Assembly (NCBI GenBank): GCA_964455525.1
Contig: CAYVWR010000003.1
Span: forward strand, 323,475-387,474
Direction: 5' to 3'
Source of the DNA: an uncultured Alphaproteobacteria bacterium
Lineage (GTDB): Bacteria; Bacteroidota; Ignavibacteria; OLB7
Length of the DNA: 64,000 bases
Both the position numbers and the translations under genes were made by a program. Shown here in pieces: positions 2,454-61,923 of this stretch; position 1 is the stretch's first letter; every line of letters begins with the position of its first letter. A model generated the notes under the pieces. That model saw only the letters and a list, made by a program, of their open reading frames with translations, made no database searches and had not been told where the DNA came from.

Positions 2454-2577
2454 ATCCCGCACGATCGCCGTGCCGCCGATGCCATGCAGAGCACAGGGGG
2501 ATTCCTGTGCTATCCTTCCGGCGACCTTCGGCTGCGATCTGCCGCAGCATTCCGGCGACCGAACCTTATCTACCGAT

Positions 2578-22937: not shown

Positions 22938-23354
22938 ATGGTTGATCAATCAATCTGTATAACCGACTATGATCTGCGCCGTCTGAGTAAGCTTGTACTT
23001 GATGGACGCTACAGAGGTGGGCAGACAGGTGGTACGCTGCGGAAGCTTTGGACCGAACTTGGCCGGGCCGATGTTGTGCCGTCGAAGAACGTTCCGCCGG
23101 ATGTTATCACGATGAACTCCACCGTCCGTCTGCTCGATGTGGACCGGGGAACCACCAGCACGTTTACTCTGGTCTTTCCTGCGGCGGCAGACATTGCAAC
23201 CGGATGCATTTCCATCCTCTCGCCAATAGGAATGGCGATGCTGGGCTATAGGGTTGGCGATAGTTTTGAATGGGAAGTTCCTTCAGGGATCAGACGATTA
23301 CAGGTGGAATCGATCGTCTATCAGCCAGAGGCAGCGGGAGACTACCACTTGTAG
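22938..23354 (+). CDS. rnk: GreA/GreB C-terminal-domain regulator (regulator of nucleoside diphosphate kinase, Rnk-like).
   Basis: About 138 aa. Pattern DYDLRRL...LLDVDRG...SILSPIGMAMLGYRVGDSFEW is typical of Rnk/GreA C-terminal domain proteins. Confidence 0.65.
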   Translation: MVDQSICITDYDLRRLSKLVLDGRYRGGQTGGTLRKLWTELGRADVVPSKNVPPDVITMNSTVRLLDVDRGTTSTFTLVFPAAADIATGCISILSPIGMAMLGYRVGDSFEWEVPSGIRRLQVESIVYQPEAAGDYHL

Positions 23355-24621: not shown

Positions 24622-25153
24622 ACCGTAAACGTGGAATCTACACAGGTTTTAAGCATCCCAGATTGTGTCTGACAATTTGAATCGTCTAGCGACGAGATAC
24701 CTGTTGGGAACAGGTGTGCAATGCCGCCGAAACGGTGCCAATCGCTCTTCAGTGTACGGAAGAAGCTCCCACTGAGAGCAGTATCCCAGCAGGTGCTCCA
24801 ACGGTTTATGCTCCGGGTAACGGCATTGGCTGAACAGAACTCAGCAATGCCAATGGCCGTATACTGGGGCGATCGGGGGGCGTGACTGGCCGCGTGTGCT
24901 GCGAGTCGGTTGTGCGTACCCGTTGGCACAGTGTTCTTGTGCACGCGGAAAGCCAGCAACCATGACCTGCATCGACGTTCTGCTGGATGGTCTCGGCAAA
25001 TACCGCAGCGTTAGATGTACGATATGAAAAAAAGTTAACGTCGGGTTGCAAATGCATTGCATTGGCTCATCGCTCAGGGTATGTTCCCTCTGCGTGTACA
25101 ACCGCCAATGATCTCGCTGCTCATCCAGTATCGTTCTAAAGAAAGGTGCATGT

Positions 25154-27277
25154 ATGCTGCTGATAAGATTGCACGTTCGTGCAGGTGTATCGCTCCAGGT
25201 TCTGCTGCTGCTGCTTGCGGTGGCTTCTGCACTGCATGCAGGGGAGCATGATGGCAGGGATCGCTACGCTCTGGTGCTGCCGGATAGCACGGAGGTGGAC
25301 GCACCTGTGCAGACCAGCGAGTCACCGTTCAAACGTGGTCGATCGGGCCTGCGTGTGTATGTCTATGGAGACGATGGGCAACTGGTCTCGGATGCCGATG
25401 TCCAGGTCTTCTCGCTGATTGATGCGACGGTTCTTGCGGTCCCGTTCGACACACTGCATCGAGCGTATTCTCTGCGAGTGACCTGGGTGAAGGACTTCGA
25501 GTATGAAGAAGTGGATAGGGGAATCGCACCGCACCGCTACAAGAAGCTACGGATCAGCAAAGCAGGATATCAGCCTCAGGAGTATTACCTGAACGAGTGT
25601 TGTGATGCCGGTCTGGGCCGGGTCGATATCTATCTGGCACGACCAGGGGAACGCCTGTATTACGATGGGTGCCATGGCATACCGTTCACTCCGCATCGCG
25701 ACCTTGCCTATGTGGAGTTTATCTGGAGCGATGCGGGTCATCGGAGGCAGAACCAGAAGGTGTTGAAGGAACTAGGGTTGCAGGTGGTGCGGAACTACCC
25801 AGGTGTTGCGATCAAGGAGACTTCACCGAAGCAGAGAGGTCGGCGAAGCCGTGTTGGCAGCAATGGTGTGGTTGTGCGGAAGTCGGGTGGGGGTGTGTTT
25901 GATGCGGTGGGTGATACGGTTCTGGGCGCGTTGCGCGGTGATACTCTGGTGCGTACCGCAGGGATGGTGCGTGGCATGAGCGGTGATCGTGTTGATGCTT
26001 ACGACAACCGCTTGGTGCTGGTCTTTGGTACTCTTGAGGATGCGTTGCTGGAGAACGACTACGAGACGGTGACGAACCTTTTGTGGGGTATGGGTGCCAG
26101 CGATATAGTTGTACAGTTTGGTGATCGTCTTATCGCGGAGTTCGATGCAGGGATGGGAGAAGGCATCCTGGACATCGCCGATAGCCTTCGGCGAACGCGT
26201 TTGTTCGATGCGTTGCAGAACACGGATGTCGGCACGTTCTCTCACTTCTACCAACGGAGGATCTCAAGGCAGCCGAAGCCGTCCTCGCCCGGCGGGAAGC
26301 GCACGCGGGAGGCCAGCCGATCGGCCTCGCAGTTGCGTTCGTCCGGCACGATCGTCTCTGGCAGTGGTGAGGTGCTGCTGCCGGTGCGTGTGGTTGGTGA
26401 TTCCGGTGAGGTGGTCAACAATGTGATCGTGAGTGCATACCGGCACCTGGAATCAATACCGAGGACATCGTTGGCGGTTGGTTATGACTCATCGCGTTCG
26501 TTGTATCTGATTCCGTACAAGCCTACGAAGATGTCGTGGCTTGTGGCGTGGGCACCGGGTCGTGTACGTCAGGTTCGTCCCCTTTCGAGTTCTGTTCTCT
26601 CGGAAGTGATCGATGGGGTGCTGACCCTGCGGCTGTATAGCGTGCGCCTGGAATATTATTGGCTGGGGAGCTGGAAAGTTCTCTACGAGAGCCGTCCGGA
26701 CTGGATGAGCCTGAGATACAAGCCGGGCCGGTTGGCAGCGGTTGAACGGTTGGTGCAGAGTCTGGATCTGCGTGTCGTGGGAGATCTGGAGCTGGAAGAA
26801 TTGATAAGAGGCCCTATTGTATGGCCATGGGGACCTAATCCATTTCGTTATCGTGAAAACAACCTGGCACGGCTGCGTGAGGCAGAGATACTGATGGTTG
26901 CCAAACGCAACGGTGAGTTGTTCGATCGGTACGACAGTCGGGAGCTGGAAGGATTGCGTGGTGATACAAATGTCATCTTTGCGGGACCGACATCTGCATC
27001 GACGCATGTGTATGTTCATATGCATGATAACGATATTCGCCTACGCTTGTCTGAGAGGATGACATCACGGGATCTAGGCTACCTGGTCGCACCATATGGG
27101 TTGAGTCTTGAGTCGGGAGTGACGGAGGATGCCAAGGATCGTTACAGAGTGAGTCTTCCATTGGGGATGGGTGAAGGAGCCAGGGAGCTGATCGATCGGC
27201 TGATTCTAGTAAAAGGCATTGCAATCCCCAGCAGTGATAATTATCAATTTGAAAGTTGGCTTAAAGGGGAGGATTGA
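25154..27277 (+). CDS. Secreted 707-aa protein of unknown function, copy 1.
   Basis: Signal peptide MLLIRLHVRAGVSLQVLLLLLAVASALHA. Segments LRVYVYGDDGQLVSDADVQVFS and LLPVRVVGDSGEVVNNVIVSAY look like transthyretin/CarboxypepD_reg-like beta-sandwich modules. Confidence 0.6.
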   Translation: MLLIRLHVRAGVSLQVLLLLLAVASALHAGEHDGRDRYALVLPDSTEVDAPVQTSESPFKRGRSGLRVYVYGDDGQLVSDADVQVFSLIDATVLAVPFDTLHRAYSLRVTWVKDFEYEEVDRGIAPHRYKKLRISKAGYQPQEYYLNECCDAGLGRVDIYLARPGERLYYDGCHGIPFTPHRDLAYVEFIWSDAGHRRQNQKVLKELGLQVVRNYPGVAIKETSPKQRGRRSRVGSNGVVVRKSGGGVFDAVGDTVLGALRGDTLVRTAGMVRGMSGDRVDAYDNRLVLVFGTLEDALLENDYETVTNLLWGMGASDIVVQFGDRLIAEFDAGMGEGILDIADSLRRTRLFDALQNTDVGTFSHFYQRRISRQPKPSSPGGKRTREASRSASQLRSSGTIVSGSGEVLLPVRVVGDSGEVVNNVIVSAYRHLESIPRTSLAVGYDSSRSLYLIPYKPTKMSWLVAWAPGRVRQVRPLSSSVLSEVIDGVLTLRLYSVRLEYYWLGSWKVLYESRPDWMSLRYKPGRLAAVERLVQSLDLRVVGDLELEELIRGPIVWPWGPNPFRYRENNLARLREAEILMVAKRNGELFDRYDSRELEGLRGDTNVIFAGPTSASTHVYVHMHDNDIRLRLSERMTSRDLGYLVAPYGLSLESGVTEDAKDRYRVSLPLGMGEGARELIDRLILVKGIAIPSSDNYQFESWLKGED

Positions 27278-27438
27278 TCCCCAACGTGCCGATTCGTGCT
27301 TTGTGAAGATATCCCGTGGAAACGATGCGGGATGATATGTCTGGGCTGTGATTGTCCCAGCAAACTCTTGTTGCCCTCTGTCCTCTCGTGATAGTGCAGG
27401 GGAGCCAGTATATCAAGTACACCACAACAACAATTTCT

Positions 27439-27891
27439 ATGAAACGAAGCCAAGTGCGATCGCTGTTTATTCGTGTCTGTGATCCGATGGGAATGCTGAT
27501 AGGTGATGCCACTGTGTCGGTGCGGAGCAGTGATGGGGTTGTGGAGCGTGTTGCCTCGGGTGTGGATAGGATAGGGCATGGTGTGAAGAAGGAGTATAAT
27601 CATTATATCAAAGATATTGAGCCAGGAACATATATCCTGGAGATCAGCCGACCAGGGTCGATACTGGAGCGCTTGGTAGTTGATATGCCGGATACTGGTC
27701 GGTATCTGGAATGTATGCTCCACGCAAAGGATAGTGAGTATGGGTATCGGGCAGGCCGGAGCGCTGGATATTGCACGGGAGCACTGGAAGTAGCCGTGAT
27801 GCATGCTGGCAGAGTTGAAGATTGTGATCTGCGTGGTACTCGGGAAGTCGCTGAGAGTTTTGGGCTGCACCTGTCCGGGATATTTGAATAG
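27439..27891 (+). pseudogene. Truncated duplicate of the 5' end (~150 codons) of the giant S8 gene, created by the tandem duplication. It ends GIFE* where the intact gene continues GIFKNADG.
   Basis: Identical to 30310-30762 apart from junction bases. The reading frame runs into the repeat junction and stops at 27891. Confidence 0.6.
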
Positions 27892-30762
27892 GATATGAAA
27901 AAAAGTTAACGTCGAGTTGCAAATGCATTGCATTGGCTCATCGCTCAGGGTATGTTCCCTCTGCGTGTACAACCGCCAATGATCTCGCTGCTCATCCAGT
28001 ATCGTTCTAAAGAAAGGTGCATGTATGCTGCTGATAAGATTGCACGTTCGTGCAGGTGTATCGCTCCAGGTTCTGCTGCTGCTGCTTGCGGTGGCTTCTG
28101 CACTGCATGCAGGGGAGCATGATGGCAGGGATCGCTACGCTCTGGTGCTGCCGGATAGCACGGAGGTGGACGCACCTGTGCAGACCAGCGAGTCACCGTT
28201 CAAACGTGGTCGATCGGGCCTGCGTGTGTATGTCTATGGAGACGATGGGCAACTGGTCTCGGATGCCGATGTCCAGGTCTTCTCGCTGATTGATGCGACG
28301 GTTCTTGCGGTCCCGTTCGACACACTGCATCGAGCGTATTCTCTGCGAGTGACCTGGGTGAAGGACTTCGAGTATGAAGAAGTGGATAGGGGAATCGCAC
28401 CGCACCGCTACAAGAAGCTACGGATCAGCAAAGCAGGATATCAGCCTCAGGAGTATTACCTGAACGAGTGTTGTGATGCCGGTCTGGGCCGGGTCGATAT
28501 CTATCTGGCACGACCAGGGGAACGCCTGTATTACGATGGGTGCCATGGCATACCGTTCACTCCGCATCGCGACCTTGCCTATGTGGAGTTTATCTGGAGC
28601 GATGCGGGTCATCGGAGGCAGAACCAGAAGGTGTTGAAGGAACTAGGGTTGCAGGTGGTGCGGAACTACCCAGGTGTTGCGATCAAGGAGACTTCACCGA
28701 AGCAGAGAGGTCGGCGAAGCCGTGTTGGCAGCAATGGTGTGGTTGTGCGGAAGTCGGGTGGGGGTGTGTTTGATGCGGTGGGTGATACGGTTCTGGGCGC
28801 GTTGCGCGGTGATACTCTGGTGCGTACCGCAGGGATGGTGCGTGGCATGAGCGGTGATCGTGTTGATGCTTACGACAACCGCTTGGTGCTGGTCTTTGGT
28901 ACTCTTGAGGATGCGTTGCTGGAGAACGACTACGAGACGGTGACGAACCTTTTGTGGGGTATGGGTGCCAGCGATATAGTTGTACAGTTTGGTGATCGTC
29001 TTATCGCGGAGTTCGATGCAGGGATGGGAGAAGGCATCCTGGACATCGCCGATAGCCTTCGGCGAACGCGTTTGTTCGATGCGTTGCAGAACACGGATGT
29101 CGGCACGTTCTCTCACTTCTACCAACGGAGGATCTCAAGGCAGCCGAAGCCGTCCTCGCCCGGCGGGAAGCGCACGCGGGAGGCCAGCCGATCGGCCTCG
29201 CAGTTGCGTTCGTCCGGCACGATCGTCTCTGGCAGTGGTGAGGTGCTGCTGCCGGTGCGTGTGGTTGGTGATTCCGGTGAGGTGGTCAACAATGTGATCG
29301 TGAGTGCATACCGGCACCTGGAATCAATACCGAGGACATCGTTGGCGGTTGGTTATGACTCATCGCGTTCGTTGTATCTGATTCCGTACAAGCCTACGAA
29401 GATGTCGTGGCTTGTGGCGTGGGCACCGGGTCGTGTACGTCAGGTTCGTCCCCTTTCGAGTTCTGTTCTCTCGGAAGTGATCGATGGGGTGCTGACCCTG
29501 CGGCTGTATAGCGTGCGCCTGGAATATTATTGGCTGGGGAGCTGGAAAGTTCTCTACGAGAGCCGTCCGGACTGGATGAGCCTGAGATACAAGCCGGGCC
29601 GGTTGGCAGCGGTTGAACGGTTGGTGCAGAGTCTGGATCTGCGTGTCGTGGGAGATCTGGAGCTGGAAGAATTGATAAGAGGCCCTATTGTATGGCCATG
29701 GGGACCTAATCCATTTCGTTATCGTGAAAACAACCTGGCACGGCTGCGTGAGGCAGAGATACTGATGGTTGCCAAACGCAACGGTGAGTTGTTCGATCGG
29801 TACGACAGTCGGGAGCTGGAAGGATTGCGTGGTGATACAAATGTCATCTTTGCGGGACCGACATCTGCATCGACGCATGTGTATGTTCATATGCATGATA
29901 ACGATATTCGCCTACGCTTGTCTGAGAGGATGACATCACGGGATCTAGGCTACCTGGTCGCACCATATGGGTTGAGTCTTGAGTCGGGAGTGACGGAGGA
30001 TGCCAAGGATCGTTACAGAGTGAGTCTTCCATTGGGGATGGGTGAAGGAGCCAGGGAGCTGATCGATCGGCTGATTCTAGTAAAAGGCATTGCAATCCCC
30101 AGCAGTGATAATTATCAATTTGAAAGTTGGCTTAAAGGGGAGGATTGATCCCCAACGTGCCGATTCGTGCTTTGTGAAGATATCCCGTGGAAACGATGCG
30201 GGATGATATGTCTGGGCTGTGATTGTCCCAGCAAACTCTTGTTGCCCTCTGTCCTCTCGTGATAGTGCAGGGGAGCCAGTATATCAAGTACACCACAACA
30301 ACAATTTCTATGAAACGAAGCCAAGTGCGATCGCTGTTTATTCGTGTCTGTGATCCGATGGGAATGCTGATAGGTGATGCCACTGTGTCGGTGCGGAGCA
30401 GTGATGGGGTTGTGGAGCGTGTTGCCTCGGGTGTGGATAGGATAGGGCATGGTGTGAAGAAGGAGTATAATCATTATATCAAAGATATTGAGCCAGGAAC
30501 ATATATCCTGGAGATCAGCCGACCAGGGTCGATACTGGAGCGCTTGGTAGTTGATATGCCGGATACTGGTCGGTATCTGGAATGTATGCTCCACGCAAAG
30601 GATAGTGAGTATGGGTATCGGGCAGGCCGGAGCGCTGGATATTGCACGGGAGCACTGGAAGTAGCCGTGATGCATGCTGGCAGAGTTGAAGATTGTGATC
30701 TGCGTGGTACTCGGGAAGTCGCTGAGAGTTTTGGGCTGCATCTGTCCGGGATATTCAAAAAT
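27892..30762 (+). repeat. Tandem direct repeat, copy 2 (2,871 bp). This is the ancestral copy and continues into the intact giant gene.
   Basis: Near-identical to 25021-27891. One substitution was noticed: G at 25045 versus A at 27916. Identity decays only in the last ~10 bp at the junction. Confidence 0.9.
28025..30148 (+). CDS. Secreted 707-aa protein of unknown function, copy 2 (identical to copy 1).
   Basis: Identical translation to 25154-27277. Confidence 0.6.
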   Translation: MLLIRLHVRAGVSLQVLLLLLAVASALHAGEHDGRDRYALVLPDSTEVDAPVQTSESPFKRGRSGLRVYVYGDDGQLVSDADVQVFSLIDATVLAVPFDTLHRAYSLRVTWVKDFEYEEVDRGIAPHRYKKLRISKAGYQPQEYYLNECCDAGLGRVDIYLARPGERLYYDGCHGIPFTPHRDLAYVEFIWSDAGHRRQNQKVLKELGLQVVRNYPGVAIKETSPKQRGRRSRVGSNGVVVRKSGGGVFDAVGDTVLGALRGDTLVRTAGMVRGMSGDRVDAYDNRLVLVFGTLEDALLENDYETVTNLLWGMGASDIVVQFGDRLIAEFDAGMGEGILDIADSLRRTRLFDALQNTDVGTFSHFYQRRISRQPKPSSPGGKRTREASRSASQLRSSGTIVSGSGEVLLPVRVVGDSGEVVNNVIVSAYRHLESIPRTSLAVGYDSSRSLYLIPYKPTKMSWLVAWAPGRVRQVRPLSSSVLSEVIDGVLTLRLYSVRLEYYWLGSWKVLYESRPDWMSLRYKPGRLAAVERLVQSLDLRVVGDLELEELIRGPIVWPWGPNPFRYRENNLARLREAEILMVAKRNGELFDRYDSRELEGLRGDTNVIFAGPTSASTHVYVHMHDNDIRLRLSERMTSRDLGYLVAPYGLSLESGVTEDAKDRYRVSLPLGMGEGARELIDRLILVKGIAIPSSDNYQFESWLKGED

Positions 30763-38274: not shown

Positions 38275-38473
38275 GCGCCGGAATACCACTGCCGGGAGCG
38301 GCCGGGCGGAATACACCCGGTCGCTCCCGGCTTCGGATGGTCTATCGGTTATGCAGTCCGGCAGAGCATTCCCTGCGGCCATATCTACCAGAGCACTTCG
38401 ATTTTTGTCACCATCCCGCATCTATCCATCACGAATTTTTCACGTGGTCACCGCCACATTCTATGAAGATGTT

Positions 38474-47017: not shown

Positions 47018-47152
47018 CCGGGCATAGATGTTATGGAGCGGTGGTATCCCATATGCCACCGCTCTGCACGCCCGTGCTTTACAGGTGCTCCAACGTGGAT
47101 AAGGCCGCTATCGGCCAAGTAAGAGCTATCACTTCATATTATCATTCTTATT

Positions 47153-50100: not shown

Positions 50101-53100
50101 TACCTCGGTCGATCTGACAACCGGAACGCAGCCGGGCGGATATAAGGTGGACTGGATCATCACCGATACCAGCCTTGCCATATCTCTTCCCCGCCCTGCT
50201 ATCGATATCGATGGCCCATCGGCGCCATACCAGGGTTCGGCGTGGGTTTTTGCTGTTGGCGATGATGTTCAGGTGCCGGATGGTATGACGATTCTGGATC
50301 GGTACTTCTGCCTGCGGGACGCTGCGGATATCACGGTAGATCTCCTCTTCCAGGCCAGTGATCCGGTGTTGATCTGGATCAATGACCAGCTCCTGGTCGA
50401 TCTTCTCGACGAAGGTTCGATTGTCAGGCAGACGGTTCATCTCGCCGCCGGCCGACATCGGGTAAGGGTGAAGGTGGTGCATGCGGTGCCGGGATATCAT
50501 AAGGGGTTTAATGCCCAGGGAAGTATTACCACCTCGTTGCCTGCTCTGGTCAGGGATGAGTGCTGCGATGCGATGGGAGCCTCCGTGCCCGGCACACTGC
50601 TGAAAAAACTCTGCTGCGATTCCTGGATCGACTGTGGCAGGCTCTATGAATTTTCGGCCCTTGCCAGGATTCTCTGTGGTGCCAGCCGCGAGCCGAACGA
50701 CCCGTTCTTCGATCTCCCTTCGATAGGGGTGGCCAATACGCTGATGGTGGATTTTGAAGCGACGACGCTACAGGATCTGCTCGTGCTTCTGGAGATCAAT
50801 GGCAATCCGCCGCTTGGGATCGAGCCGGTCGGCACCGGCTTCTGCGATCGTCTGAGGTTCATTCTGCAGAATCTGATTTTTGCCTATTCCAATCCTGCGC
50901 TGCTGACACCGTTGCTGCGGTACAGGATCGAATGTTTTTACACCAGGTTGCTCGATGGCATTGCGGCTGATGCCGAATTGTTGATCGACCCACCGGCCGA
51001 CTGCTCTCCCTGCGAGGATATCTGTCTCAGATGGCTCGATCTGCTGCGCTGCCTGTGCGCCCTCTGCGCCGATGAAGAATCGGTGGCTATCGGGTTATTT
51101 GAAACACTGGTATGCGGAGCCAATGGTCTCTATAATTATCTCTATCCCGGCGGCTCTGCCGTGCCGGTTCCGGTATATCCTGTGCCATATCCGCCCGAGG
51201 CGCCCGTTACCTGCTGTGATATAGTGCGGAGAACCTATACGTTCTTTGCCCTCCTCTGCCTGGAGTGCGGGAGCGTTCCGGCGGATATGGCCGCTGAGTT
51301 GGAACTTCGCTACGCTGATTTTCATGCCCAACTCCAGGTGCTCCGTGCCACATCACAGGGAACTGCTCCCGATCTCTGCTATGACCGTTGCGGCTACTGG
51401 CAGCCGAAGCTTGAATGCCTGATGAATCTCTGCCTGCGGGTTCCCGATCTGCCGAGCGATGTGCGCGATGCCTTTGGCGATCTGCTCAGCAGGCATGTGA
51501 GGCCGCTGTTCGATCTGCTGCGTGGAGAGGCTTCCTTCGATAATCCATTTGAGCCTCATGTCATAGGCGATACCTGCTGGCAACTGTTCCAGATATGCCG
51601 GATGATGCATCTGCATTGCTCGCCGCTGAATCTATGGTCGCGCGATCTGATGCAGGAGATTGATGGGTTTCGGCATGCGTTCGATGCCGACTATGCCGTC
51701 GTTATGTCATTGCTCGGAACAAAGGATATCCCCGCATGTTATTTCAGAGACCGATCGTGCGAAGTTCTGCAGGCGATCCCGGATTTCTATCGTCTCTTCT
51801 GTTCCGATGTGCCCGATCTACAGCATATGCCTGTCAGGCAGCTCGACACCTTGACGGCCGGGCATGGGCTGGAAATACGGATGCTACAGTATCATACGGG
51901 CGCGCCGAACACGGCTTATCAAACAGCCGGAGGCTTCTGCCAGCGATTCGGTTCGTTTCTGGGGATTCTTGCGGCGGCATTCGGACACTATGGGCAATTG
52001 GCTCCGGCGTACAGGCTTGCTGCCGACCTGCTCTACACTGCCGTGGATATCCTCGCTGCCGAGTACCGCATGCTGGTACCGGAACGAGTCGTCCCGGCTT
52101 CTACGGCGATGAGCCGGTATCGCGATACATGGCTGGATCTGCTCGGCTGCCTCTGTGCGATATGCGGATATGTGAAAGGGCTGAGCGATCAGGAGAAAGA
52201 GACACAGGAGAATCAGGAAATCCTTTCCTATTTCGATCCTGTGTCGGCTCTGATGATGGCCGTCGATGAGCTGTATGATGGTATCGTGCCGCTGGCAGCT
52301 CAGCATGATCTGCCACTCCCTTCCGGGATCTGTGTTGCAGGGGATGGCTGCACGCGTGTCGGGGGGGCCATGAGCTTTTTCTCCATGCTCGGCCTTTCCT
52401 CGGCAGATGTGCCAGCCGACCTTGTGGCTCTGCTGAAAAGCATTCTGAAGGATCTTAGAGAAGAGATCGCGCCACTTCGGGGGTATCTTGCCAGCATCGG
52501 ACGTGATCTCTGCCGCCAGGAGAATCCCGACTTTGTCGCAGTGCAGTCGTCGCATCTGTACATCCAGGCGGCGGGGTCCACCGGCGCCGATGGCAGCTCC
52601 CCCGGAATTCATCTTCGTTGGAGTCTGCTGGGAGAAGATCTTGGGGAGCGTCATCTTCCAAAGGGAAATCTGGCATCTCCCGGTTCCGAATATTATGGGG
52701 CGAATGGCTATAACAAGGCCGGTGATTTTGTGCGAATCTACCGGACCCCATATAAGCAGAAGTTTGCGGCCATCATCGATCTCAATGAAACGATGCCGGT
52801 GGCGGTCATTCCGGGGAATGCCTATACGCCGTGGCGGCTGGACTATCATGATATCCTCACCGATCCTCTCTTTCCCGATTCCGGGACGACGGTAGGGCTG
52901 CTTCTGTTGGACCCATACGCCGGGTCGATCGAGATACCCGAGCCGGGGTCGCCCGATTTTACGGAGTATGTGCAGGATATCTTTGCAACGTATAACGGCG
53001 CATTTGAACTTGATACGCCGCTCAAGCTGATATTTGGTTTTGAAGTCATACCACCACATTCTGCTACAGGAATATCGACACAGTTCGAGGCCATCTCCCA

Positions 53101-56100
53101 CATCGGTGATCCGAGCCTCCATTCTACTGATATTCTTACCTGCCGGAAGACGATCGCCGAAGGGGATAAACCGCATAAGATCTACAGCGAGCATATCCGA
53201 TCGGTGCGCTTCAAGCCTGTCAACTATAAGCCGGTACAATTGATCGTCGAAACATATCACGATTATCATACGGCAATCAAACGCCGATTCCTCTGGGAGC
53301 ATATCGGTGATTTTGGGCTTTCCACCGATACCGGCGAGGTATTTCGCCGTCTGGAGGATGCGCCGAGATATGTGGTGCACAACCGCTGGCCGAAATATTC
53401 TTCATCGGACAGCAGTTCCAATGAAGCTACGCCGCAGAAGGTGAATGTCGATACGTACAAGGACCGATGGAGTCCGAATCGTGAGTTCTTGCCGAACGGC
53501 GATCCCAATCCCGGTTATGATCCGGCGCGTCCGGATTATCTGCGCGATCCGCAGCAGTCGCTTCGCTGGGCCATCGAAACGTATCTCGATGAAAGCCGGG
53601 ATCCGGCAAAACTTGAGGCCTGGATCGATCAGCCATCGCTTGGAGATGGCGATCAGAGCTATATCAGCATCAGCCTTCTTGCCATGCTCCGATTCGCGGC
53701 CCAGGATTATCATGTTGCCCGCATGCTTGGGCTGGGCCATATCGATTGGGAGGTTCCGATGCAGCAGGATTCATCGGAACAACAATATGTCTATCTGGCG
53801 GAGTATATAACGCTGCCGAACAGCACCATGCCAAATTCTATGATACACCGGTCGCTGTCGCTCCCCACGGGGCGCTCCGATCATCGCCTCCCGGTAACGC
53901 CGGAGATTCTGAACCTGGAGCCAGGTCTGGCATCCGATCTTACCGATGAGCAGGGATATACACGGTTCGGTGACAGCCGTTTTATCAAGGTCAACCGCAA
54001 GGATCTGATGTTCGATCTTCCGGCCGTAACCGAATTTTTTGCAGGGACGGAGGAGTTCAGCCGTGGTGATAATACTCGTCCGGTATTCTATGGGGTGAAA
54101 TTCAGCGTCAAGGACCCTGCCGATCCTACCGTATGGATGATTGATCCGAGCAATGACGCCGGAGAAAATCCGCCCATCGGATACAGGCCATACAAGGACC
54201 CGGCCGGCGAGCCGGAAATCATACCAGTTCCCGATACAGGGAATCCTCTCTTTATCCACAGAATAGAGCGGCGTGAAGAACACACCGGAGTTCATCGCTA
54301 CGGCATGTATGGCATCAACTGGTTTTCGCGTGCCTCTGCTGTCAGCGAAAGCACCAATACGGTCGAGAATACATTTCCTGTCAGGAATACTCTGCTCCCT
54401 CCATTAAATCTGACGGCGCAGTATATCCAGAAGGAGCAGGCACTGATGTTCACCTCGGCAGCCGAGCAGAACCCGGTAAACGGCCTTCTCGGAAAATCCA
54501 GGGTTACGTTCGACTGGAATCATATCCATACTATCGCCTATCAGGAGGCGGAGTATGTGGATTTCTATTTCCGGAATACCGCACCGGAGATGATTAAAGG
54601 AAGGGTGAAGTATGTGGAATCCGCGCTCGATGGAGCCACTGCCAGAGTGACTCTTGAAGCATACCAGGAGTCACAGGGAACGATCATCGATCCAAACGAT
54701 CCCGATAAGCCGGTTTTCCAGAATCCAGATCGTTTTGTCGGTGGTATGTTCGTTACAGATCAACGGAAATATATCGTCGCGGATATCATCCTGGTTCTCT
54801 CCGGGCCTGCTGCGCCGGTTGCCGTCTTCGAGCTGCAAGGTGTTATGGAGGCTACGCCGGATGGGCCTCCAGGTGCAATGCTTCCGGTGCTTCCGGTTGC
54901 CGGGACGATTGTGGTGATTCAGGAAAATGCTTCCGCTTCCTCCCGGTGGACCGCTCTTCCGGAGAACCGGATCAAGCTGGCGAGGTTCAATATTGCTCCA
55001 TATGCCTCGGGCACTTCTGGTTCGCCGACAGCGCTCTATAGCGAGAGCATCCGGGAGAATGACAGGTATGTACGGTATGCGATGGGAGGGCTGGCCGACC
55101 CTGCTGTATCGGTGCAGCGGGATAGCACTCCCGGTATGCTGGAGAATATCTTTACCCTCACATTTTCCAGCGCAGTGCTGTATCCATACAGTGCCCAGTT
55201 CCCTGAGTACTCCAATGTCGATTTCTATAAGGGGACTGCGCGTGTTCATCTGCCGGATGAAGGCGTACGGCAGGTGGAGGTCCTCAAGATCCATTCATAC
55301 GATCCTCTGGTTCTGTATGTATACGATCCAGAAGGAGAAATTGCTCCACAGAACGGAAGTGTCATCAGGTCTGTCAATTTCCATCCATCCTACAGGGTCT
55401 ATCTCGATCTGGGGGCGGATGGCATAACGACTGATGATATTGAGCCGCAGGGGGGAGCGCAGACCAGGACGACATTGCTTGCAGCACGTTCGGTGGATAC
55501 CACCACCTGCGCCGGGGCGATCTTCAGGTCGCCGCTGGCTACCGCCCCGCATAGCGCACGTTTGATGATCGAGGCAAAGACGCCGAACGACCCGGTTGGG
55601 CCGGAGTTTGCCACGCGCCCCGATTATTACGGCAAATCGACCTATACGTTTGACACCCGTATCGCTCTGCGGCCGGTGATGGAGCCATACGGCATGATGT
55701 TCTATCGGTGCGATGAACAGGCAGTTCTGGCAGCGTTATATACAAGTGCCACCATCGCGGAGATAGGTGCCGCCCTGGCTGGCAGGGAGGGGGAGGCATC
55801 GTACGCCGACCGGTGGAGGGGGCTTGTGAATGGAACCCTTGTCGGGGGAGCATTCGAGATATTCGATGGCTACGGATTCCCGCTTCCTGATAATCCGGAT
55901 ACCTTTATCCCTACTCCCGCAAATCCGTCAACCCTGCGCTACCCCTTTCTCTCTGGAACGCCAACCGCAGAGGACATCCGGGATGTGATCGATACTGTGT
56001 TCCTTCCGCTGACGGAATATCCCGTTATCGTGGGTCTGGTCGGGATTGATGATACCCTTCGGACATCGAGCAAGAAGCCGGTGATACGGAAGGATGACCC

Positions 56101-57007
56101 GATGTTCGATCCATATCCGATGATACGGGTAGGCGATCCCGGCGATGGGAGAACCGTTCGTTTCACCGATTTTACGCTCGATGGAGCATCGAACAACATC
56201 TACTTCTATTATACACGGGAGATGTCAAATGAGATGGTTTTTGGCGAGCGGAGTACGATCGTAGGTCCTGTACGGCTGATCAACTCGATGCCGCCTGCTG
56301 CTCCGGCCATCACAAGGATTGCAGGCCAGTCGCCGAACCCATTGCTTGATCTGCAAGCGCAGGTTTCCTTCGAGATCGTGCCATACCCGCCGGGTGAGAG
56401 GATCGAGAAGCTGGGGGTCTACCGTGCTCTCTCCGAAGTGGATACGCGCAGTCTGGCGCTGATGCGCCATGTCGGCGATATGGACATTCCGCCAGTCGGC
56501 ACCATCCAGCAGCGATATACGGTGGTGGATCGCTTCCAAAACGAGGCTATTCCCTTCGGGCGGCTGCTCTATTATCGCATTGTGGCGTACAGACGTATTC
56601 TCAACGAAGAAGGGAATGTGGAGCATGTGATGTCCCTTCCCTCGGACGTGATAATGACAAACATCGTCGACACTGTAAGCCCGGTGGCACCGGCCATTAT
56701 CGTCTCCGATCCTCTGCCGGTTACCGGGGATGCCATCAGCGGTCTGGTTCTGGCATGGTCCCCTACTACATATCAGGGAACCTATGCTCTGTACATGATG
56801 ACTTCCGGTGGCAACTGGATGAAACTGAAGGACTATGCTCCTGATGACGAGCTGGCATATGACTGGGCAGAGGAGAACCCGGACAATGCAACGCTACCGG
56901 CATTTCGTAACGGCAGCAGGGTCTATCACCGGTTCAAGGTGATGGTGAAAAATTCCTCCGGTCTGGTGAATCTGGAGGATACGGTAAAGCTTGTCCATGC
57001 GCCATAG
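47153..57007 (+). CDS. Giant protein (3,284 aa) of unknown function. The N-terminal ~1,700 aa is built from at least 8 copies of a ~130-aa Cys/Trp helical repeat, and the C-terminus has FN3/Ig-like beta modules.
   Basis: Repeated motifs: CAAWQTLLNCFCRFC, CAEWSRILSCLNRIC, CDRWLPMLECLGAIC, CARWVPLLACLHAAC, CHDWMRILECLSRLC, CLRWLDLLRCLCALC, CGYWQPKLECLMNLC and YRDTWLDLLGCLCAIC. FN3-like tyrosine corner LLYYRIVAYRRILNEEG near the C-terminus. Confidence 0.65.
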   Translation: MSQQQSIVLSFSNIEYQGGFVGNNFTITIQVAAARSGGGSLGTESTLISLPITQDTNLDHYRIAMAVPYQPAVTTIFTVDISITGTGSGASSSGSAQSSIPLSAGISSRSDVIAVPVARTGGGPGPGPGGNAILKLSFDTIVRDAPVCYRMDWLCQTRNTIPVVMGWLCQGTGFTVSPDGPAFSGLQSVIELDALLKKHMPGLNWLNSQLSLGYSPTGPDMMGQADYATSITLAAAPQAMSLSLSQAHGLSGFYQDFTTKIGNYAGEVYHRLPQPEPTLCAAWQTLLNCFCRFCTTMSDYPSQDVDLWTNQAAGVVHDAYQEFVLIAAAEGMAYAINPNITDICGKLAELVGFWAWWCRNCPRLQITWGSTVQPYYDSLYSIASQMSFWDEADQFDFCEPLAKGLCERWFAGLGCIERLCDRMDYLPGTVLTTLENSFGAILYAALYGVEYNQTSSQGTSFCFQIERLKLYLGLVCSSGSILGDDRREELETLIGQLEDAYGSFPYRNLCAEVDCAEWSRILSCLNRICQRKSELSLNDAIWLSDHFAEIVDDLYYAVESLMTPATPPSSGGNGLELMCWKLDRIGGYVEAICCSGEPFDPVLNARLSMFQSAFADLNLHAPGICADCDRWLPMLECLGAICDNKGMVPPDLAESIAELFSPPIHAIYTWLPDDGSNEVAPPLEPLGLDPLCWRLQKVLAWFNDLCAGTEVMDPVLRQNLEAAHFTLTVAFDALGEVEKWRNICDQTSAVSGELCARWVPLLACLHAACGNALLPSAMRDAILAEFGEIIDLLDWLLGTPDGYYEPPIEISMSDFCMKLARVQQKIHQICSNQIAVHPILLLRLEHELEHALPAFNTLLAAYPSICAGEEFCHDWMRILECLSRLCGQQNLLGGDLIARLITNFGKIIHDAYRRVMGQEPEVIPGYTIEILCSDASALLEWFVDYCGCGVGITAGLRDDLSVYLAQLQLAYDGLHPCKSDCATTSVDLTTGTQPGGYKVDWIITDTSLAISLPRPAIDIDGPSAPYQGSAWVFAVGDDVQVPDGMTILDRYFCLRDAADITVDLLFQASDPVLIWINDQLLVDLLDEGSIVRQTVHLAAGRHRVRVKVVHAVPGYHKGFNAQGSITTSLPALVRDECCDAMGASVPGTLLKKLCCDSWIDCGRLYEFSALARILCGASREPNDPFFDLPSIGVANTLMVDFEATTLQDLLVLLEINGNPPLGIEPVGTGFCDRLRFILQNLIFAYSNPALLTPLLRYRIECFYTRLLDGIAADAELLIDPPADCSPCEDICLRWLDLLRCLCALCADEESVAIGLFETLVCGANGLYNYLYPGGSAVPVPVYPVPYPPEAPVTCCDIVRRTYTFFALLCLECGSVPADMAAELELRYADFHAQLQVLRATSQGTAPDLCYDRCGYWQPKLECLMNLCLRVPDLPSDVRDAFGDLLSRHVRPLFDLLRGEASFDNPFEPHVIGDTCWQLFQICRMMHLHCSPLNLWSRDLMQEIDGFRHAFDADYAVVMSLLGTKDIPACYFRDRSCEVLQAIPDFYRLFCSDVPDLQHMPVRQLDTLTAGHGLEIRMLQYHTGAPNTAYQTAGGFCQRFGSFLGILAAAFGHYGQLAPAYRLAADLLYTAVDILAAEYRMLVPERVVPASTAMSRYRDTWLDLLGCLCAICGYVKGLSDQEKETQENQEILSYFDPVSALMMAVDELYDGIVPLAAQHDLPLPSGICVAGDGCTRVGGAMSFFSMLGLSSADVPADLVALLKSILKDLREEIAPLRGYLASIGRDLCRQENPDFVAVQSSHLYIQAAGSTGADGSSPGIHLRWSLLGEDLGERHLPKGNLASPGSEYYGANGYNKAGDFVRIYRTPYKQKFAAIIDLNETMPVAVIPGNAYTPWRLDYHDILTDPLFPDSGTTVGLLLLDPYAGSIEIPEPGSPDFTEYVQDIFATYNGAFELDTPLKLIFGFEVIPPHSATGISTQFEAISHIGDPSLHSTDILTCRKTIAEGDKPHKIYSEHIRSVRFKPVNYKPVQLIVETYHDYHTAIKRRFLWEHIGDFGLSTDTGEVFRRLEDAPRYVVHNRWPKYSSSDSSSNEATPQKVNVDTYKDRWSPNREFLPNGDPNPGYDPARPDYLRDPQQSLRWAIETYLDESRDPAKLEAWIDQPSLGDGDQSYISISLLAMLRFAAQDYHVARMLGLGHIDWEVPMQQDSSEQQYVYLAEYITLPNSTMPNSMIHRSLSLPTGRSDHRLPVTPEILNLEPGLASDLTDEQGYTRFGDSRFIKVNRKDLMFDLPAVTEFFAGTEEFSRGDNTRPVFYGVKFSVKDPADPTVWMIDPSNDAGENPPIGYRPYKDPAGEPEIIPVPDTGNPLFIHRIERREEHTGVHRYGMYGINWFSRASAVSESTNTVENTFPVRNTLLPPLNLTAQYIQKEQALMFTSAAEQNPVNGLLGKSRVTFDWNHIHTIAYQEAEYVDFYFRNTAPEMIKGRVKYVESALDGATARVTLEAYQESQGTIIDPNDPDKPVFQNPDRFVGGMFVTDQRKYIVADIILVLSGPAAPVAVFELQGVMEATPDGPPGAMLPVLPVAGTIVVIQENASASSRWTALPENRIKLARFNIAPYASGTSGSPTALYSESIRENDRYVRYAMGGLADPAVSVQRDSTPGMLENIFTLTFSSAVLYPYSAQFPEYSNVDFYKGTARVHLPDEGVRQVEVLKIHSYDPLVLYVYDPEGEIAPQNGSVIRSVNFHPSYRVYLDLGADGITTDDIEPQGGAQTRTTLLAARSVDTTTCAGAIFRSPLATAPHSARLMIEAKTPNDPVGPEFATRPDYYGKSTYTFDTRIALRPVMEPYGMMFYRCDEQAVLAALYTSATIAEIGAALAGREGEASYADRWRGLVNGTLVGGAFEIFDGYGFPLPDNPDTFIPTPANPSTLRYPFLSGTPTAEDIRDVIDTVFLPLTEYPVIVGLVGIDDTLRTSSKKPVIRKDDPMFDPYPMIRVGDPGDGRTVRFTDFTLDGASNNIYFYYTREMSNEMVFGERSTIVGPVRLINSMPPAAPAITRIAGQSPNPLLDLQAQVSFEIVPYPPGERIEKLGVYRALSEVDTRSLALMRHVGDMDIPPVGTIQQRYTVVDRFQNEAIPFGRLLYYRIVAYRRILNEEGNVEHVMSLPSDVIMTNIVDTVSPVAPAIIVSDPLPVTGDAISGLVLAWSPTTYQGTYALYMMTSGGNWMKLKDYAPDDELAYDWAEENPDNATLPAFRNGSRVYHRFKVMVKNSSGLVNLEDTVKLVHAP

Positions 57008-57331
57008 AGTAGCTCTCCGCATCAGGCACCCGCATGCTCGGTTGGTTCCCGATGTCGATATCAGAACCGCTTCGATCCATCCAATGGCCGGGGCGGTTCT
57101 TCATTGTATCGGCGTTCGCCCGGCTGTAGCTCTGCTCTTCATGGCTACAGCCCTTCGGTTCATGCGGGCAGATTCAACGGTTCAACAATGTTTTCATAGC
57201 TTGAGGGCTGGTGGCTTCTTGAAGAGACCGATGTACGGACTACTGTGCATGAGGGCACTTCCGGCAGACTGGTGCCGGCCGCGGCACATCGTTTCCCTGG
57301 CAATATTCAAACCCTAATCGTCGATACAACA

Positions 57332-58864
57332 ATGAGTGGTACTACCTCCCAAGCCCGGACGCTCGGTGAATTGAAAGCCTCGGGGTATAAGATCCTTCCG
57401 GTCAAGGATGAGATGCGGAAGAATATCATCCGCAAGCTTCGGAACCGGGAGACGCTGTTCCCCGGCATCGTGGGGTTCGACGAGACCGTGATTCCACAGC
57501 TTGTCAATGCCATCCTCGCCCGGCATGATATCATCCTGCTCGGGTTGCGCGGCCAGGCCAAGACACGTATTGCCAGGTTGCTGCCAAATCTTCTGGATGA
57601 GTATATCCCGATCGTGGCCGGCTCCGATATCAACGATAATCCATATATGCCCGTGAGCCGCTATGCTGCCGAGATCATCCGCGATCGGGGCGATGATACC
57701 CCGATCGAGTGGATTCATCGTTCGGAGCGCTACGGCGAGAAGCTTGCGACGCCCGATGTAACCATTGCCGACCTGATCGGCGATATCGACCCTATCAAGG
57801 CGGCCAACCAGCGTCTTACCTACTCGCACGAGGGGGCGATCCACTTCGGCATCGTGCCGCGTACGAACAGGGGCATCATTGTTATCAACGAGCTTCCCGA
57901 TCTTCAGCCTCGTATCCAGGTGGGCCTGTTCAATATCATGCAGGAAAAGGATATCCAGATCCGAGGGTTCAACGTGCGCATGCCGCTCGATATCGCCATC
58001 ATCTTTACGGCAAACCCGGAGGATTATACCAACCGAGGTTCCATTATCACACCGCTCAAGGATCGTATCGATTCGCAGATCCTGACGCACTACCCGCGCA
58101 CGCTGGAGGATGGGATGCTTATCACCCGCCAGGAGGCCTGGCAGGTACGCGAGGCCGATGGAACGCTGGTGATGCCGAAGTATATGGAGGAGATCGTCGA
58201 GATGGTGGCGGTGCAGGCGCGGCAGTCCGAGTTTGTCGATCAGCAGTCCGGCGTATCAGCACGTATGACCATTGCGACGATGGAGTCGCTTATCTCGAAT
58301 GCTGAACGCCGTGCCATCATCAATGGCGATGATGCGGTGGTGCCAAGGATCATTGATATGCAGCAGGCCCTGCCGGGAATTACCGGCAAGGTGGAGCTGG
58401 TGTTCGAGGGAGAGCAGGAGGGGACCGCCAAGGTGGCCCGGCTTCTTGTGAACAAGGCCGTGCGCGAGGTCTTTGCGCTGTATTTCCCGAACCCGCTTGA
58501 GCGTCCTCGCCGTTCCGGTGAGAAGGGAGCCGCACCTCCGGCCGATCCCTATGCCACGATATTGAAGTGGTTCGGAGAGGGCAATACGATCGATCTGGAT
58601 GATATGATGGCGTTCGATGCCTACTATCGTGAGCTGGAGCGGGTTCCTGGGCTACGCGATCTCACGGTTCAGTATCTCGGCATCTCCCCATCGAATCCGT
58701 ATGAGCTTGCCACGGGGATGGAGTTTGTGCTCGATGGATTGCATCAAAGCTCGAAGATCGCAAAGGAAGAGTTTGTCACACATACAAGCTACAAGGATAT
58801 GCTCGGCGCGATCTTCACATCGAAACGTGGCCGCCCGGACGATGAGGAGGAGAACGAGTTCTGA
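57332..58864 (+). CDS. BchI/ChlI (Mg-chelatase I subunit)-like AAA+ ATPase with non-canonical Walker A and Walker B motifs and an extra ~200-aa acidic C-terminal domain.
   Basis: Alignable by eye to BchI: FPGIVGFDETVIPQLVNAIL (against F.AIVGQEE.K.ALLL), GLRGQAKTRIARLLPNLL (against GDRGTGKST.IRALA.LLP), NRGIIVINELPDL (against NRGILYVDEVNLL), and arginine-finger region FTANPEDYTNRGSIITPLKDRI (against GNPEEGELRPQLLDRF). Confidence 0.7.
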   Translation: MSGTTSQARTLGELKASGYKILPVKDEMRKNIIRKLRNRETLFPGIVGFDETVIPQLVNAILARHDIILLGLRGQAKTRIARLLPNLLDEYIPIVAGSDINDNPYMPVSRYAAEIIRDRGDDTPIEWIHRSERYGEKLATPDVTIADLIGDIDPIKAANQRLTYSHEGAIHFGIVPRTNRGIIVINELPDLQPRIQVGLFNIMQEKDIQIRGFNVRMPLDIAIIFTANPEDYTNRGSIITPLKDRIDSQILTHYPRTLEDGMLITRQEAWQVREADGTLVMPKYMEEIVEMVAVQARQSEFVDQQSGVSARMTIATMESLISNAERRAIINGDDAVVPRIIDMQQALPGITGKVELVFEGEQEGTAKVARLLVNKAVREVFALYFPNPLERPRRSGEKGAAPPADPYATILKWFGEGNTIDLDDMMAFDAYYRELERVPGLRDLTVQYLGISPSNPYELATGMEFVLDGLHQSSKIAKEEFVTHTSYKDMLGAIFTSKRGRPDDEEENEF

Positions 58865-58979
58865 GGCATGGAGCTGAGGTATGAGCCATGCCTGCGGCGC
58901 GGCGATGTTTCCGCCCCGGCATGCATCCCCTTACCCCTGCCGGGCGGTTTATGCCGGATGTCCGGTTCAAACATAAAAA

Positions 58980-59033
58980 CGCCCGTCGCTCATGGCATCC
59001 ATGCCGTGTGAGCGACGGGCGTTCGTATTCTTG
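58980..59033. terminator. Bidirectional rho-independent terminator lying between the convergent AAA+ gene and argD.
   Basis: Perfect 13-bp stem CGCCCGTCGCTCA...TGAGCGACGGGCG around a 16-nt loop. On the minus strand it is followed by TTTTTATGTTT, and on the plus strand by TTCGTATTCTT. Confidence 0.7.
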
Positions 59034-61616: not shown

Positions 61617-61923
61617 CGTTCTTCTGTTCCTTTGCCGAGGATTTGATTGCCCTGTCCACAAGATCTCTCAGTTCCCGCGAGACCTTGAAATGAGGGACAA
61701 ATTGACCGTCGAGATCGACGACTTCCCCGGTACGGGGATTGCGGCCGATCCGGGGGGCACGTTCTTTGATACGAAACGTCCCGAAGCCTCTGATCTCCAC
61801 ATGTTCTTCGTGGCAGAGCGCTTCGGCAACGGTTTTCAGGAAACCGTCGATCACAGCCTCGGTTTCCAGTTTTGTAAGCCCTGTTCCGTCCGCTACACGG
61901 TCTATGATATCCGATTTTGTCAT
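61609..61923 (-). CDS. HU/IHF-family nucleoid-associated DNA-binding protein.
   Basis: MTKSDIIDRVADGTGLTKLETEAVIDGFLKTV...VEIRGFGTFRIKERAPRIGRNPRTGEVVDL is the classic HU/IHF arm signature (GFGxF...R.GRNP.TGE). Confidence 0.8.
   Translation of the reverse strand: MTKSDIIDRVADGTGLTKLETEAVIDGFLKTVAEALCHEEHVEIRGFGTFRIKERAPRIGRNPRTGEVVDLDGQFVPHFKVSRELRDLVDRAIKSSAKEQKNDE

Follow-up and report, generated by a model that had tools for sequence, protein, structure and literature searches.

A patchily distributed cassette of three giant-protein genes and its recently duplicated accessory gene

What kind of system is built from three adjacent genes that each encode a giant protein, and which of the genes around them belong to it? 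The question is raised by a block of long open reading frames (ORFs), all on the + strand, between 25.0 and 58.9 kb of a 64-kb stretch of contig CAYVWR010000003.1, which we call the window; coordinates are window positions unless another locus is named. A preliminary description had seen here a module of seven co-directional ORFs, consisting of an amplified secreted protein, three giant proteins and a BchI-like ATPase, and had suggested a chromosomal, possibly lineage-specific surface or secretion-related system in no obviously mobile context. The common orientation and the positions of the ORFs were found as described, and so was the co-localisation of a 707-aa protein (A707) with the three giants, with no match to a characterised system. 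The seven ORFs are, however, five distinct genes, namely A707 in two copies, giants 1 to 3 and an AAA+ ATPase, since ORFs 1 and 2 on the one side, and ORF 3 with the start of giant 1 on the other, are two copies of one unit. Comparison with related sequences gives good support to the view that giants 1 to 3 form a self-contained, so far uncharacterised set of three genes, which is widely but patchily distributed.

Relatives were gathered by scans of genomes, metagenomes and IMG/VR and by look-ups of relatives, the first locus coming from a word-indexed match. This first relative, in a Kapaibacteriota metagenome-assembled genome (MAG), holds a collinear S8 giant (2651 aa), a giant 2 homologue (2810 aa) and a giant 3 homologue (3152 aa). 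Word-indexed searches gave one or two matches per giant and strongly under-reported the family, which an exhaustive HMMER search showed to be large. In all, the cassette of giants 1 to 3 was found in 11 further loci, belonging to Kapaibacteriota MAGs, Aquimarina, Kordia, other Bacteroidota and a metagenome contig of 66% GC. To judge from the closest homologues, the organism of the window is probably itself a member or a relative of Kapaibacteriota. Wherever all three positions are visible (L006, L007, L012, L015/L013, L016, L017 and L019; Table 1), the genes follow one another as giant 1 - giant 2 - giant 3. When the complete cassette is defined by a protein-1 core with PA0049_N and a C15-like part, the N- and C-cores of giant 2 and the FN3-rich core of giant 3, it occurs in order in the window, L006/L007, L012, L017 and L019; in Aquimarina and Kordia the protein-1 core is present, but no C15-like part was detected. 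Full-length alignments with the homologues run at 32-49% identity with hundreds of invariant positions, and such end-to-end alignment with distant relatives argues that the giants are functional genes, not pseudogenes or chance ORFs. The comparison of synteny that the preliminary description had proposed has thereby been made, and the giants proved to be collinear in the related loci, neither scattered nor pseudogenised. Flanking genes differ in every related locus, which argues that the three genes move together.

In two MAGs the standard locus is accompanied by a second, paralogous one. In the loci of the second type (L009, L010 and L011), the place of giant 1 is taken by a protein of ~920-957 aa that has no Pfam match and, by BLAST and profile comparison, no link to giant 1. 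The same searches linked the ~1035-aa proteins of Aquimarina and Kordia neither to giant 1 nor to these ~950-aa proteins. The surroundings are varied as well: an FRG-domain protein and a Ser/Thr kinase adjoin the L012 cassette; that of L011 lies between housekeeping genes, as in the window. The Kordia cassette has a tyrosine integrase 1 kb upstream, on a stretch that IMG/VR lists as viral; a scan of viral contigs with the giant 2 alignment gave no match, and the Kordia locus was reached through giant 3 and its own protein.

The extent of the family is best seen from the core of giant 3. An exhaustive HMMER search with residues 1793-2872 returned 424 representative clusters at E < 1e-3, 322 of them below 1e-30, and the suggestion of a lineage-specific block therefore does not hold. 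Most giant 3 relatives measure 1450-2200 aa, and about a dozen reach ~3000-3200 aa; those sampled are named 'hypothetical protein', apart from one 'BspA family LRR surface protein' in Aquimarina. The compact trio of L012 maps the cores within the larger proteins, at residues 1531-2303 and 2361-2680 of giant 1, 42-1370 and 2405-2866 of giant 2 and 1797-3281 of giant 3. Judged from these alignments, what lies outside the mapped cores in the window giants is lineage-specific expansion. The ancestral cassette was compact, with proteins of ~1.1, 2.0 and 1.5 thousand residues, and in genomes of the Kapaibacteriota type it has grown by the fusion of an S8 protease to protein 1 and by the insertion of arrays of a 118-aa repeat into proteins 2 and 3. 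Compact relatives have no S8 protease.

Downstream of giant 3, Aquimarina and Kordia carry additional genes (L016 19078-22503 and L013 14799-15497) for a protein of 211-232 aa and a 910-aa Peptidase_S74 protein; the window has neither. The first ~35 residues of the 910-aa protein, whose Peptidase_S74 part is a tail-fibre chaperone domain, are shared with the neighbouring 211-aa protein. To judge from this common N-terminus, the two look like alternative fibres with one docking peptide, a pattern typical of exchangeable fibres that attach at a single site.

The ATPase does not belong to this cassette. No homologue of it was found in any of the 11 related loci, either by tblastn or among the genes called around the cassette, and it follows giant 3 after a gap of 325 nt. 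Its G+C content at third codon positions (GC3) is 0.71, equal to that of argD and close to the ~0.70 of the other flanking genes, versus 0.59-0.63 in A707 and giants 1 to 3. On both synteny and composition we reject it as a member of the module, in which the preliminary description had included it, and regard it as an unrelated neighbour of housekeeping type. The protein shares with the ChlI/BchI-MoxR group of AAA+ ATPases a Walker A/B core and similarity to AAA_5 (28.1 bits, cut-off 22), Sigma54_activat (26 bits) and Mg_chelatase (22 bits), and its closest solved structure is BchI (1g8p, E = 1e-3). It differs from that group in that matches stay at about 28 bits or less, far under the equivalog cut-offs (27 against 500 in NCBIfam), and in the lack of an adjacent vWA partner, its neighbours being giant 3 upstream and a convergent argD-like gene downstream. 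By these weak matches it would be a generic ChlI/MoxR-type AAA+ protein. The strong hairpin that had been reported at 58980-59033 as a bidirectional terminator is indeed there (Table 1). It is convincing as a terminator between the convergent ATPase (+) and argD-like (-) genes, and it closes the ATPase gene and not the giant cassette.

Of the three proteins, giant 1 has the most recognisable parts. A subtilase (Peptidase S8) domain occupies residues ~360-890, including an insert of ~220 aa, and reaches 102 bits with the Pfam model PF00082. With its intact triad of D367 (DTGVD), H445 (HGVSCA) and S851 (GTSMSTP) it is a bona fide member of this family, from which giant 1 differs in that the S8 domain makes up only ~20% of the protein and is missing from compact relatives. 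The conserved core follows at residues ~1531-2303 and is common to the 1126-aa protein of L012, the 738-aa protein of L015, the 1114-aa protein of L019 and the 3044-aa S8 giant of L017. The C-terminus (residues ~2339-2680) consists of PA0049_N and a domain resembling pyroglutamyl peptidase I (Peptidase C15), which is preceded by PA0049_N in every case. The C15-like domain scores 28.5 bits against a Pfam cut-off of 22.7 and appears to keep the fold, but alignments to 1aug and to P0008, a Logan protein of 2773 aa, show Pro in place of the catalytic Cys (GSAGSYLPNEFFY) and Gly in place of the His, with the Glu kept. It is therefore a pseudo-peptidase and not a C15-type cysteine peptidase. P0008 is itself an unrelated giant with CarboxypepD_reg and Ig-like repeats, and it has the same PA0049_N and dead-C15 module in the middle of the protein; the module is therefore mobile between large proteins.

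Giant 2 has an N-core at residues 42-1370 and a C-core at residues 2405-2866. In an AlphaFold2 (AF2) model built from 13 sequences (predicted local distance difference test, pLDDT, 61; predicted template modelling score, pTM, 0.38), the N-core is predicted to begin with a helical head, after which come ~750 aa of long antiparallel beta hairpins; at this low confidence we read them as no more than a large meander sheet, possibly barrel-like. Four copies of the 118-aa repeat lie within residues 1451-2227. One relative of giant 2 (an A12 member) has a weak Pfam match to DUF6603 (E = 2.8e-4), and may thus be remotely connected with a further family that is itself uncharacterised.

Giant 3 begins with an N-terminal domain (residues 1-130) and continues with eleven copies of the same repeat at residues 203-991 and 1211-1693, the array being interrupted at residues 992-1210 by an insert that is weakly PA14-like (13 bits). 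In both giants the 118-aa repeat is mostly helical and has six conserved cysteines (consensus C..L...C ... C...C..W...L.CL...C...LP), which are invariant across six homologues. The conserved core of giant 3, rich in beta-sandwich and FN3 domains, occupies residues 1793-3284, and a confident AF2 model from 40 sequences (pLDDT 82.8, pTM 0.71) predicts a chain of all-beta, FN3-like sandwich domains. Its best Foldseek matches in BFVD are tip-attachment protein J, minor tail proteins and FN3 tail proteins (E = 4e-7 to 1e-3); the template modelling (TM) scores of these matches are ~0.1, and there is therefore no global structural relative among them. In 20 long relatives of giant 3, the modules around the core include Invasin_D3 (7/20), Big_1 (5/20) and the DUF285/BspA leucine-rich repeat (LRR) (3/20), and PKD and beta-propeller modules also occur around it in long relatives. 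Such a pattern of domains points to a constant chassis with exchangeable binding domains. In the window, the position of the exchangeable modules is taken by the cysteine-repeat array and the weak PA14-like insert.

How would such proteins leave the cell, if they do? No signal peptide or transmembrane (TM) helix was found in giants 1 to 3, a signal-like N-terminus is present in 0 of 145 complete giant 3 relatives, and the Por_Secre_tail domain of the type IX secretion system (T9SS) was not found in the giants. The checks for signal peptides and T9SS domains that had been proposed for the supposed surface or secretion system are thus negative for the giants, and A707 alone is signal-like. We reject the candidates of a T9SS cargo and of a classical Sec-exported surface adhesin, as the giants have neither a hydrophobic N-terminus nor Por_Secre_tail; a classical surface or secretion system is unlikely.

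Searches against known systems were equally unproductive. Pfam (at E values of 5 or less), NCBIfam, PHROGs, PADLOC and PDB, the last with phmmer and profiles, yielded nothing useful for giants 2 and 3 and A707 beyond the weak PA14 and DUF6603 matches, PHROGs in particular containing no match to any of the three, and the cassette has no match at the level of a system in these five collections. The 5,027 models of PADLOC-DB v2 returned solely a generic subtilase (E = 2e-5) and a weak AAA match (E = 8e-3). With Pfam and PHROGs, no sheath, tube, baseplate (gp25/Baseplate_J), spike or tape-measure genes were found in the window or the 11 loci, and the giants have no sequence or profile match to the VRP1, TcA_TcB_BD, SpvB or RHS families. 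In the literature on PA0049, DUF6603 and Kapabacteria giant proteins nothing relevant was found.

The accessory gene in front of the cassette has a history of its own. Positions 25021-27888 equal 27892-30759, a tandem duplication with a unit of 2,871 bp and ~99.9% identity (self-comparison at offset 2871), the copies differing solely at 25044, 27870, 27885 and 27886, that is, at one interior position and three near the right junction. Each unit carries 179 codons from the beginning of giant 1, besides the A707 gene and a promoter-proximal leader. In copy 1 the giant 1 fragment stops at a codon created by the duplication junction, leaving a free-standing 179-aa ORF, while copy 2 reads on into the intact giant. 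The 179-aa ORF matches giant 1 residues 1-177 identically; it is a by-product of the duplication and no separate gene family. At the junction, GGGATATTTGAATAG|GATATG, 3 bases depart from the parental giant 1 sequence, and the event was therefore not a clean copy-paste. The duplication is recent, and it is probably real. The window DNA occurs at 100% identity in two Logan assemblies (L001 and L002), and a unitig from a third run (L004, SRR16798008; 2,828 nt, 99% identical) spans exactly the repeat interior, 25045-27869; a unitig of its own is what would be expected of a real repeat in an assembly graph. The strain variant in L004 encodes an A707 of 708 aa, whose substitutions cluster at residues ~115-125 (EEVDRGIAP to PSEFETGEAS), a local hypervariable patch of the accessory protein. 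Positions 26000-32000, over the two A707 copies and the first part of giant 1, have the lowest GC (0.50-0.53) and the highest GC skew (+0.19 to +0.21), the flanks having a GC of ~0.58 and a skew of ~0.05.

A707 has a hydrophobic, signal-peptide-like N-terminus and alone among the module proteins appears to be Sec-exported. Of the amplified secreted protein in the preliminary description, there stands a signal-like 707-aa protein that is duplicated, but the amplification amounts to two copies in this assembly. Within the protein, an internal duplication has given rise to two versions of a module of ~280 aa (residues 66-345 resemble 409-683, E = 1e-5). A word-indexed search of 5.8 billion proteins gave no match beyond A707 itself, while a profile (E = 1e-8) relates it to two sequences in L006/L007, a secreted ORF of 286 aa that precedes giant 1 and the giant 1 N-terminus. 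By this profile match A707 is paralogous to a module with which giant 1 begins in relatives. The internal repeat and the paralogues in L006/L007 together indicate that this corner of the locus has been duplicated repeatedly, the 2.87-kb copy being the latest event.

Table 1. Positions of the window features and gene orders of the related loci (sizes in aa within gene orders)
Feature or locus	Position or source	Strand	Length or gene order	Remark
A707 copy 1	25154-27277	+	707 aa	
179-aa ORF	27352-27891	+	179 aa	duplicated N-terminal fragment of giant 1
A707 copy 2	28025-30148	+	707 aa	protein identical to copy 1
Giant 1	30223-38274	+	2683 aa	
Giant 2	38351-47017	+	2888 aa	conserved start M42 at 38474
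Giant 3	47153-57007	+	3284 aa	
AAA+ ATPase	57245/57332-58864	+	539/510 aa	510 aa from ATG at 57332
Terminator-like hairpin	~58975-59030	bidirectional		AACGCCCGTCGCTCA...TGAGCGACGGGCGTT; A/T-rich flanks
L006, L007	Kapaibacteriota		(286-aa signal-peptide ORF) - giant 1 - giant 2 - giant 3	
L005	Kapaibacteriota		giant 2 - giant 3	
L009, L010, L011	Kapaibacteriota and metagenome contig		unrelated ~950-aa protein - giant 2' - giant 3'	paralogous second type
L012	66% GC metagenome contig		1126 - 2061 - 1623	compact trio
L017	Bacteroidota MAG		3044 - 157 - 2327 - 1903	first protein an S8 + PA0049_N giant
L019	Logan assembly		1114 - 115 - 2009 - 1516 - PKD protein	
L016	Aquimarina		~700 - 1035 - 214 - giant 2 - giant 3 - 211 - S74 fibre	
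L013/L015	Kordia		738 - 1038 - 218 - giant 2 - giant 3 - at least 232	last protein cut by contig end

The flanks of the block agree with what had been described, surface-polysaccharide genes upstream and argD and HU downstream. Upstream lie sugar-nucleotide, heptose and lipopolysaccharide (LPS) genes: NTP_transferase, GHMP kinase, SIS/GmhA-like, GreA/Rnk-like and a GT9 heptosyltransferase. The GreA/Rnk-like gene of this heptose/LPS group (22938-23354; GreA/GreB-C and Rnk_N, regulator of nucleoside diphosphate kinase-like) is directly upstream of the divergently oriented GT9 heptosyltransferase. The downstream genes are of housekeeping type, with an Aminotran_3/argD-like gene (-), a Zn-ribbon/TPR protein, HU and an FAA hydrolase. 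The gene at 60669-61661 (-), between argD and HU, encodes the double zinc-ribbon and TPR protein and is unrelated to the cassette, and the HU protein has 146 aa with an N-terminal extension. Inside the giant genes there are very long antisense ORFs of up to 958 aa (35032-37908, 33013-34155, 51884-53380 and others; all -); nothing independent supports them, and they resemble mere shadows of the coding strand. No integrase was found among the scanned ORFs adjoining the block, no tRNA in the 64-kb window and no flanking direct repeats of at least 11 nt around the block. A prophage context of the window was rejected, there being no tRNA, no att-like repeat and no phage genes. The non-mobile context claimed for the block therefore stands for this window, but not for the Kordia cassette, with its nearby tyrosine integrase on a stretch listed as viral.

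What, then, may the three proteins do? Our tentative preference, held at somewhat less than even confidence, is a three-giant complex that is assembled in the cytoplasm, released by a non-classical route and acts on another cell or surface. Made without signal peptides, the three proteins would come together in the cytoplasm as a single large assembly. Giant 3 would be its target-recognition subunit, an FN3-rich chassis bearing binding modules that are swapped between lineages, with Ig-like Big_1/invasin, BspA-type LRR, PKD and beta-propeller modules elsewhere and the Cys-rich helical repeats with the PA14-like insert here. Giant 2, as a meander beta-sheet or barrel-like body, could provide a shell or an element that perforates or translocates across a membrane. 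Giant 1 may serve as a scaffold, by its conserved core and dead C15-like domain, to which this lineage would have added an active subtilase that serves in maturation or in attack. After its non-classical release the complex would work outside the cell that made it.

By analogy, and with low confidence, the logic of this mechanism resembles that of Tc toxins or of phage receptor-binding assemblies, with no homology to either. Tc toxins have three large subunits, none with a signal peptide, and a receptor-binding shell that varies (PMC6795518). The Tc (ABC) toxins of Photorhabdus, Yersinia and others, made of TcA, TcB and TcC, are like the cassette in being three very large proteins of adjacent genes without signal peptides (PMC6795518). 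As would be the case in the cassette, one of their subunits joins a conserved machinery to a structurally variable receptor-binding outer part, one is rich in beta-sheet, and protease activity is associated with maturation. The cassette differs in having no match to VRP1, TcA_TcB_BD, SpvB or RHS and no identified hypervariable C-terminal toxin, so the analogy is one of logic only. With phage receptor-binding and central-fibre proteins (lambda J-like tips, FN3/Ig minor tail proteins and S74-chaperoned fibres) the cassette would share arrays of FN3/Ig beta-sandwich domains, the absence of signal peptides, a modular exchange of binding domains and, in some relatives, a Peptidase_S74 fibre gene next to the cassette and an N-terminal adaptor held in common. 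It differs from them in having no PHROG match and no tail, capsid or packaging genes in any locus.

Several points weigh against a released attack complex. The mechanism, including the assembly of the three proteins into a complex, is drawn from domain content and is put forward with low confidence. The model of giant 2 is itself of low confidence, and 'barrel-like' may be a generic match to a beta-meander. For the dense, invariant cysteines of the 118-aa repeat, in proteins that have no signal peptide, a role in binding metal within the cytoplasm is at least as good an explanation as disulfides formed outside the cell. Intracellular sensors, too, contain FN3, Ig and LRR modules. No domain of effector or toxin type was recognised in the cassette besides the S8 protease, and that is missing from compact relatives; no lysis or export genes stand beside the cassette in the window.

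The bolder form of this reading is more doubtful still. It would make the cassette an unrecognised class of multi-megadalton, cytoplasm-assembled complex, neither phage-tail-derived nor Tc/RHS-related, which Bacteroidota and Kapaibacteriota would use for binding and attacking other cells, with a barrel-like body in giant 2, modular targeting in giant 3, a protease and pseudo-peptidase in giant 1 and, in the cysteine repeat, an array of a new kind for targeting or for metal binding.

The chief rival places the system inside the cell, for conflict or for immunity against phages. Giants 2 and 3 would be cytoplasmic sensors that recognise proteins of an invader by their variable repeat arrays (LRR, beta-propeller and helical Cys-repeats), and the subtilase of giant 1 would be the effector that is unleashed. 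The absence of signal peptides throughout the family suits it, as do variable repeat modules on a constant chassis, the patchy distribution, two MAGs having a pair of paralogous loci each, and a cassette GC3 below that of the flanks. The integrase beside the Kordia cassette and the FRG-domain protein and Ser/Thr kinase beside that of L012 would also be at home near such a system. We nonetheless consider it unlikely, because PADLOC offers no match except a generic subtilase, the conserved trio has no NTPase or nuclease, and compact members lack the protease that would be the effector. Moreover, Big_1, Invasin_D3, PKD and the Peptidase_S74 of the fibre genes typically belong to proteins outside the cell or on the surface of virions, and the accessory A707 has the N-terminus of a Sec-exported protein.

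A third possibility, to which we give a little less weight than to an immune system, is that the cassette is the domesticated or remnant structural module of a virus or mobile element, receptor-binding or baseplate-like, captured or left behind in most genomes without the rest of the virus. Virion proteins likewise have no signal peptides; the viral listing and upstream tyrosine integrase of the Kordia locus, the tail-protein matches of the giant 3 core in BFVD and the Peptidase_S74 fibre gene with its shared N-terminal adaptor all point in this direction. On the other side, giants 2 and 3 and A707 have no PHROG match, no locus read contains capsid, terminase, sheath, tube or portal genes, the cassettes of the window and L011 lie between housekeeping genes, and the window has no att-like repeats or tRNA.

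The model of the preliminary description, a chromosomal surface or secretion system whose ATPase powers the export or assembly of the giants as surface adhesins (for example as T9SS cargo), has become improbable. The LPS and heptose genes nearby, the adhesin-type modules in relatives and the signal peptide of A707 speak for it, but flanking genes vary between loci and the giants lack a Sec signal, TM helix and Por_Secre_tail. As regards the ATPase the model is largely refuted, this gene not being conserved with the cassette and having the composition of the flanks. Finally, it is most improbable that faulty assembly or decay into pseudogenes accounts for the duplication and the giant ORFs. A metagenome-type assembly such as this one may put perfect repeats together wrongly, but the ORFs run uninterrupted over 8-10 kb and align along their full length with distant homologues, the sequence recurs identically in independent Logan assemblies and the repeat unit forms its own unitig in a third run.

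The cassette is categorically new as a system, although made with known parts (S8, the C15-like fold and FN3), and our confidence in a released three-giant complex as its mechanism is low. Hundreds of genomes, including those of the culturable marine Flavobacteriia Aquimarina and Kordia, devote 15-30 kb to it, and its members are called 'hypothetical' or bear a wrong name taken from an added LRR module. A testable definition of the cassette is now available, with three core proteins, mapped boundaries between cores and expansions, the ATPase excluded, no Sec signals and swappable binding modules. The tandem duplication of the accessory gene and the expansions of the repeats mark the locus as one that is evolving quickly. 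If the cassette does encode a delivery or attack complex, or else an immune system, this would be a new kind of large bacterial machine and would provide a new modular scaffold for targeting.

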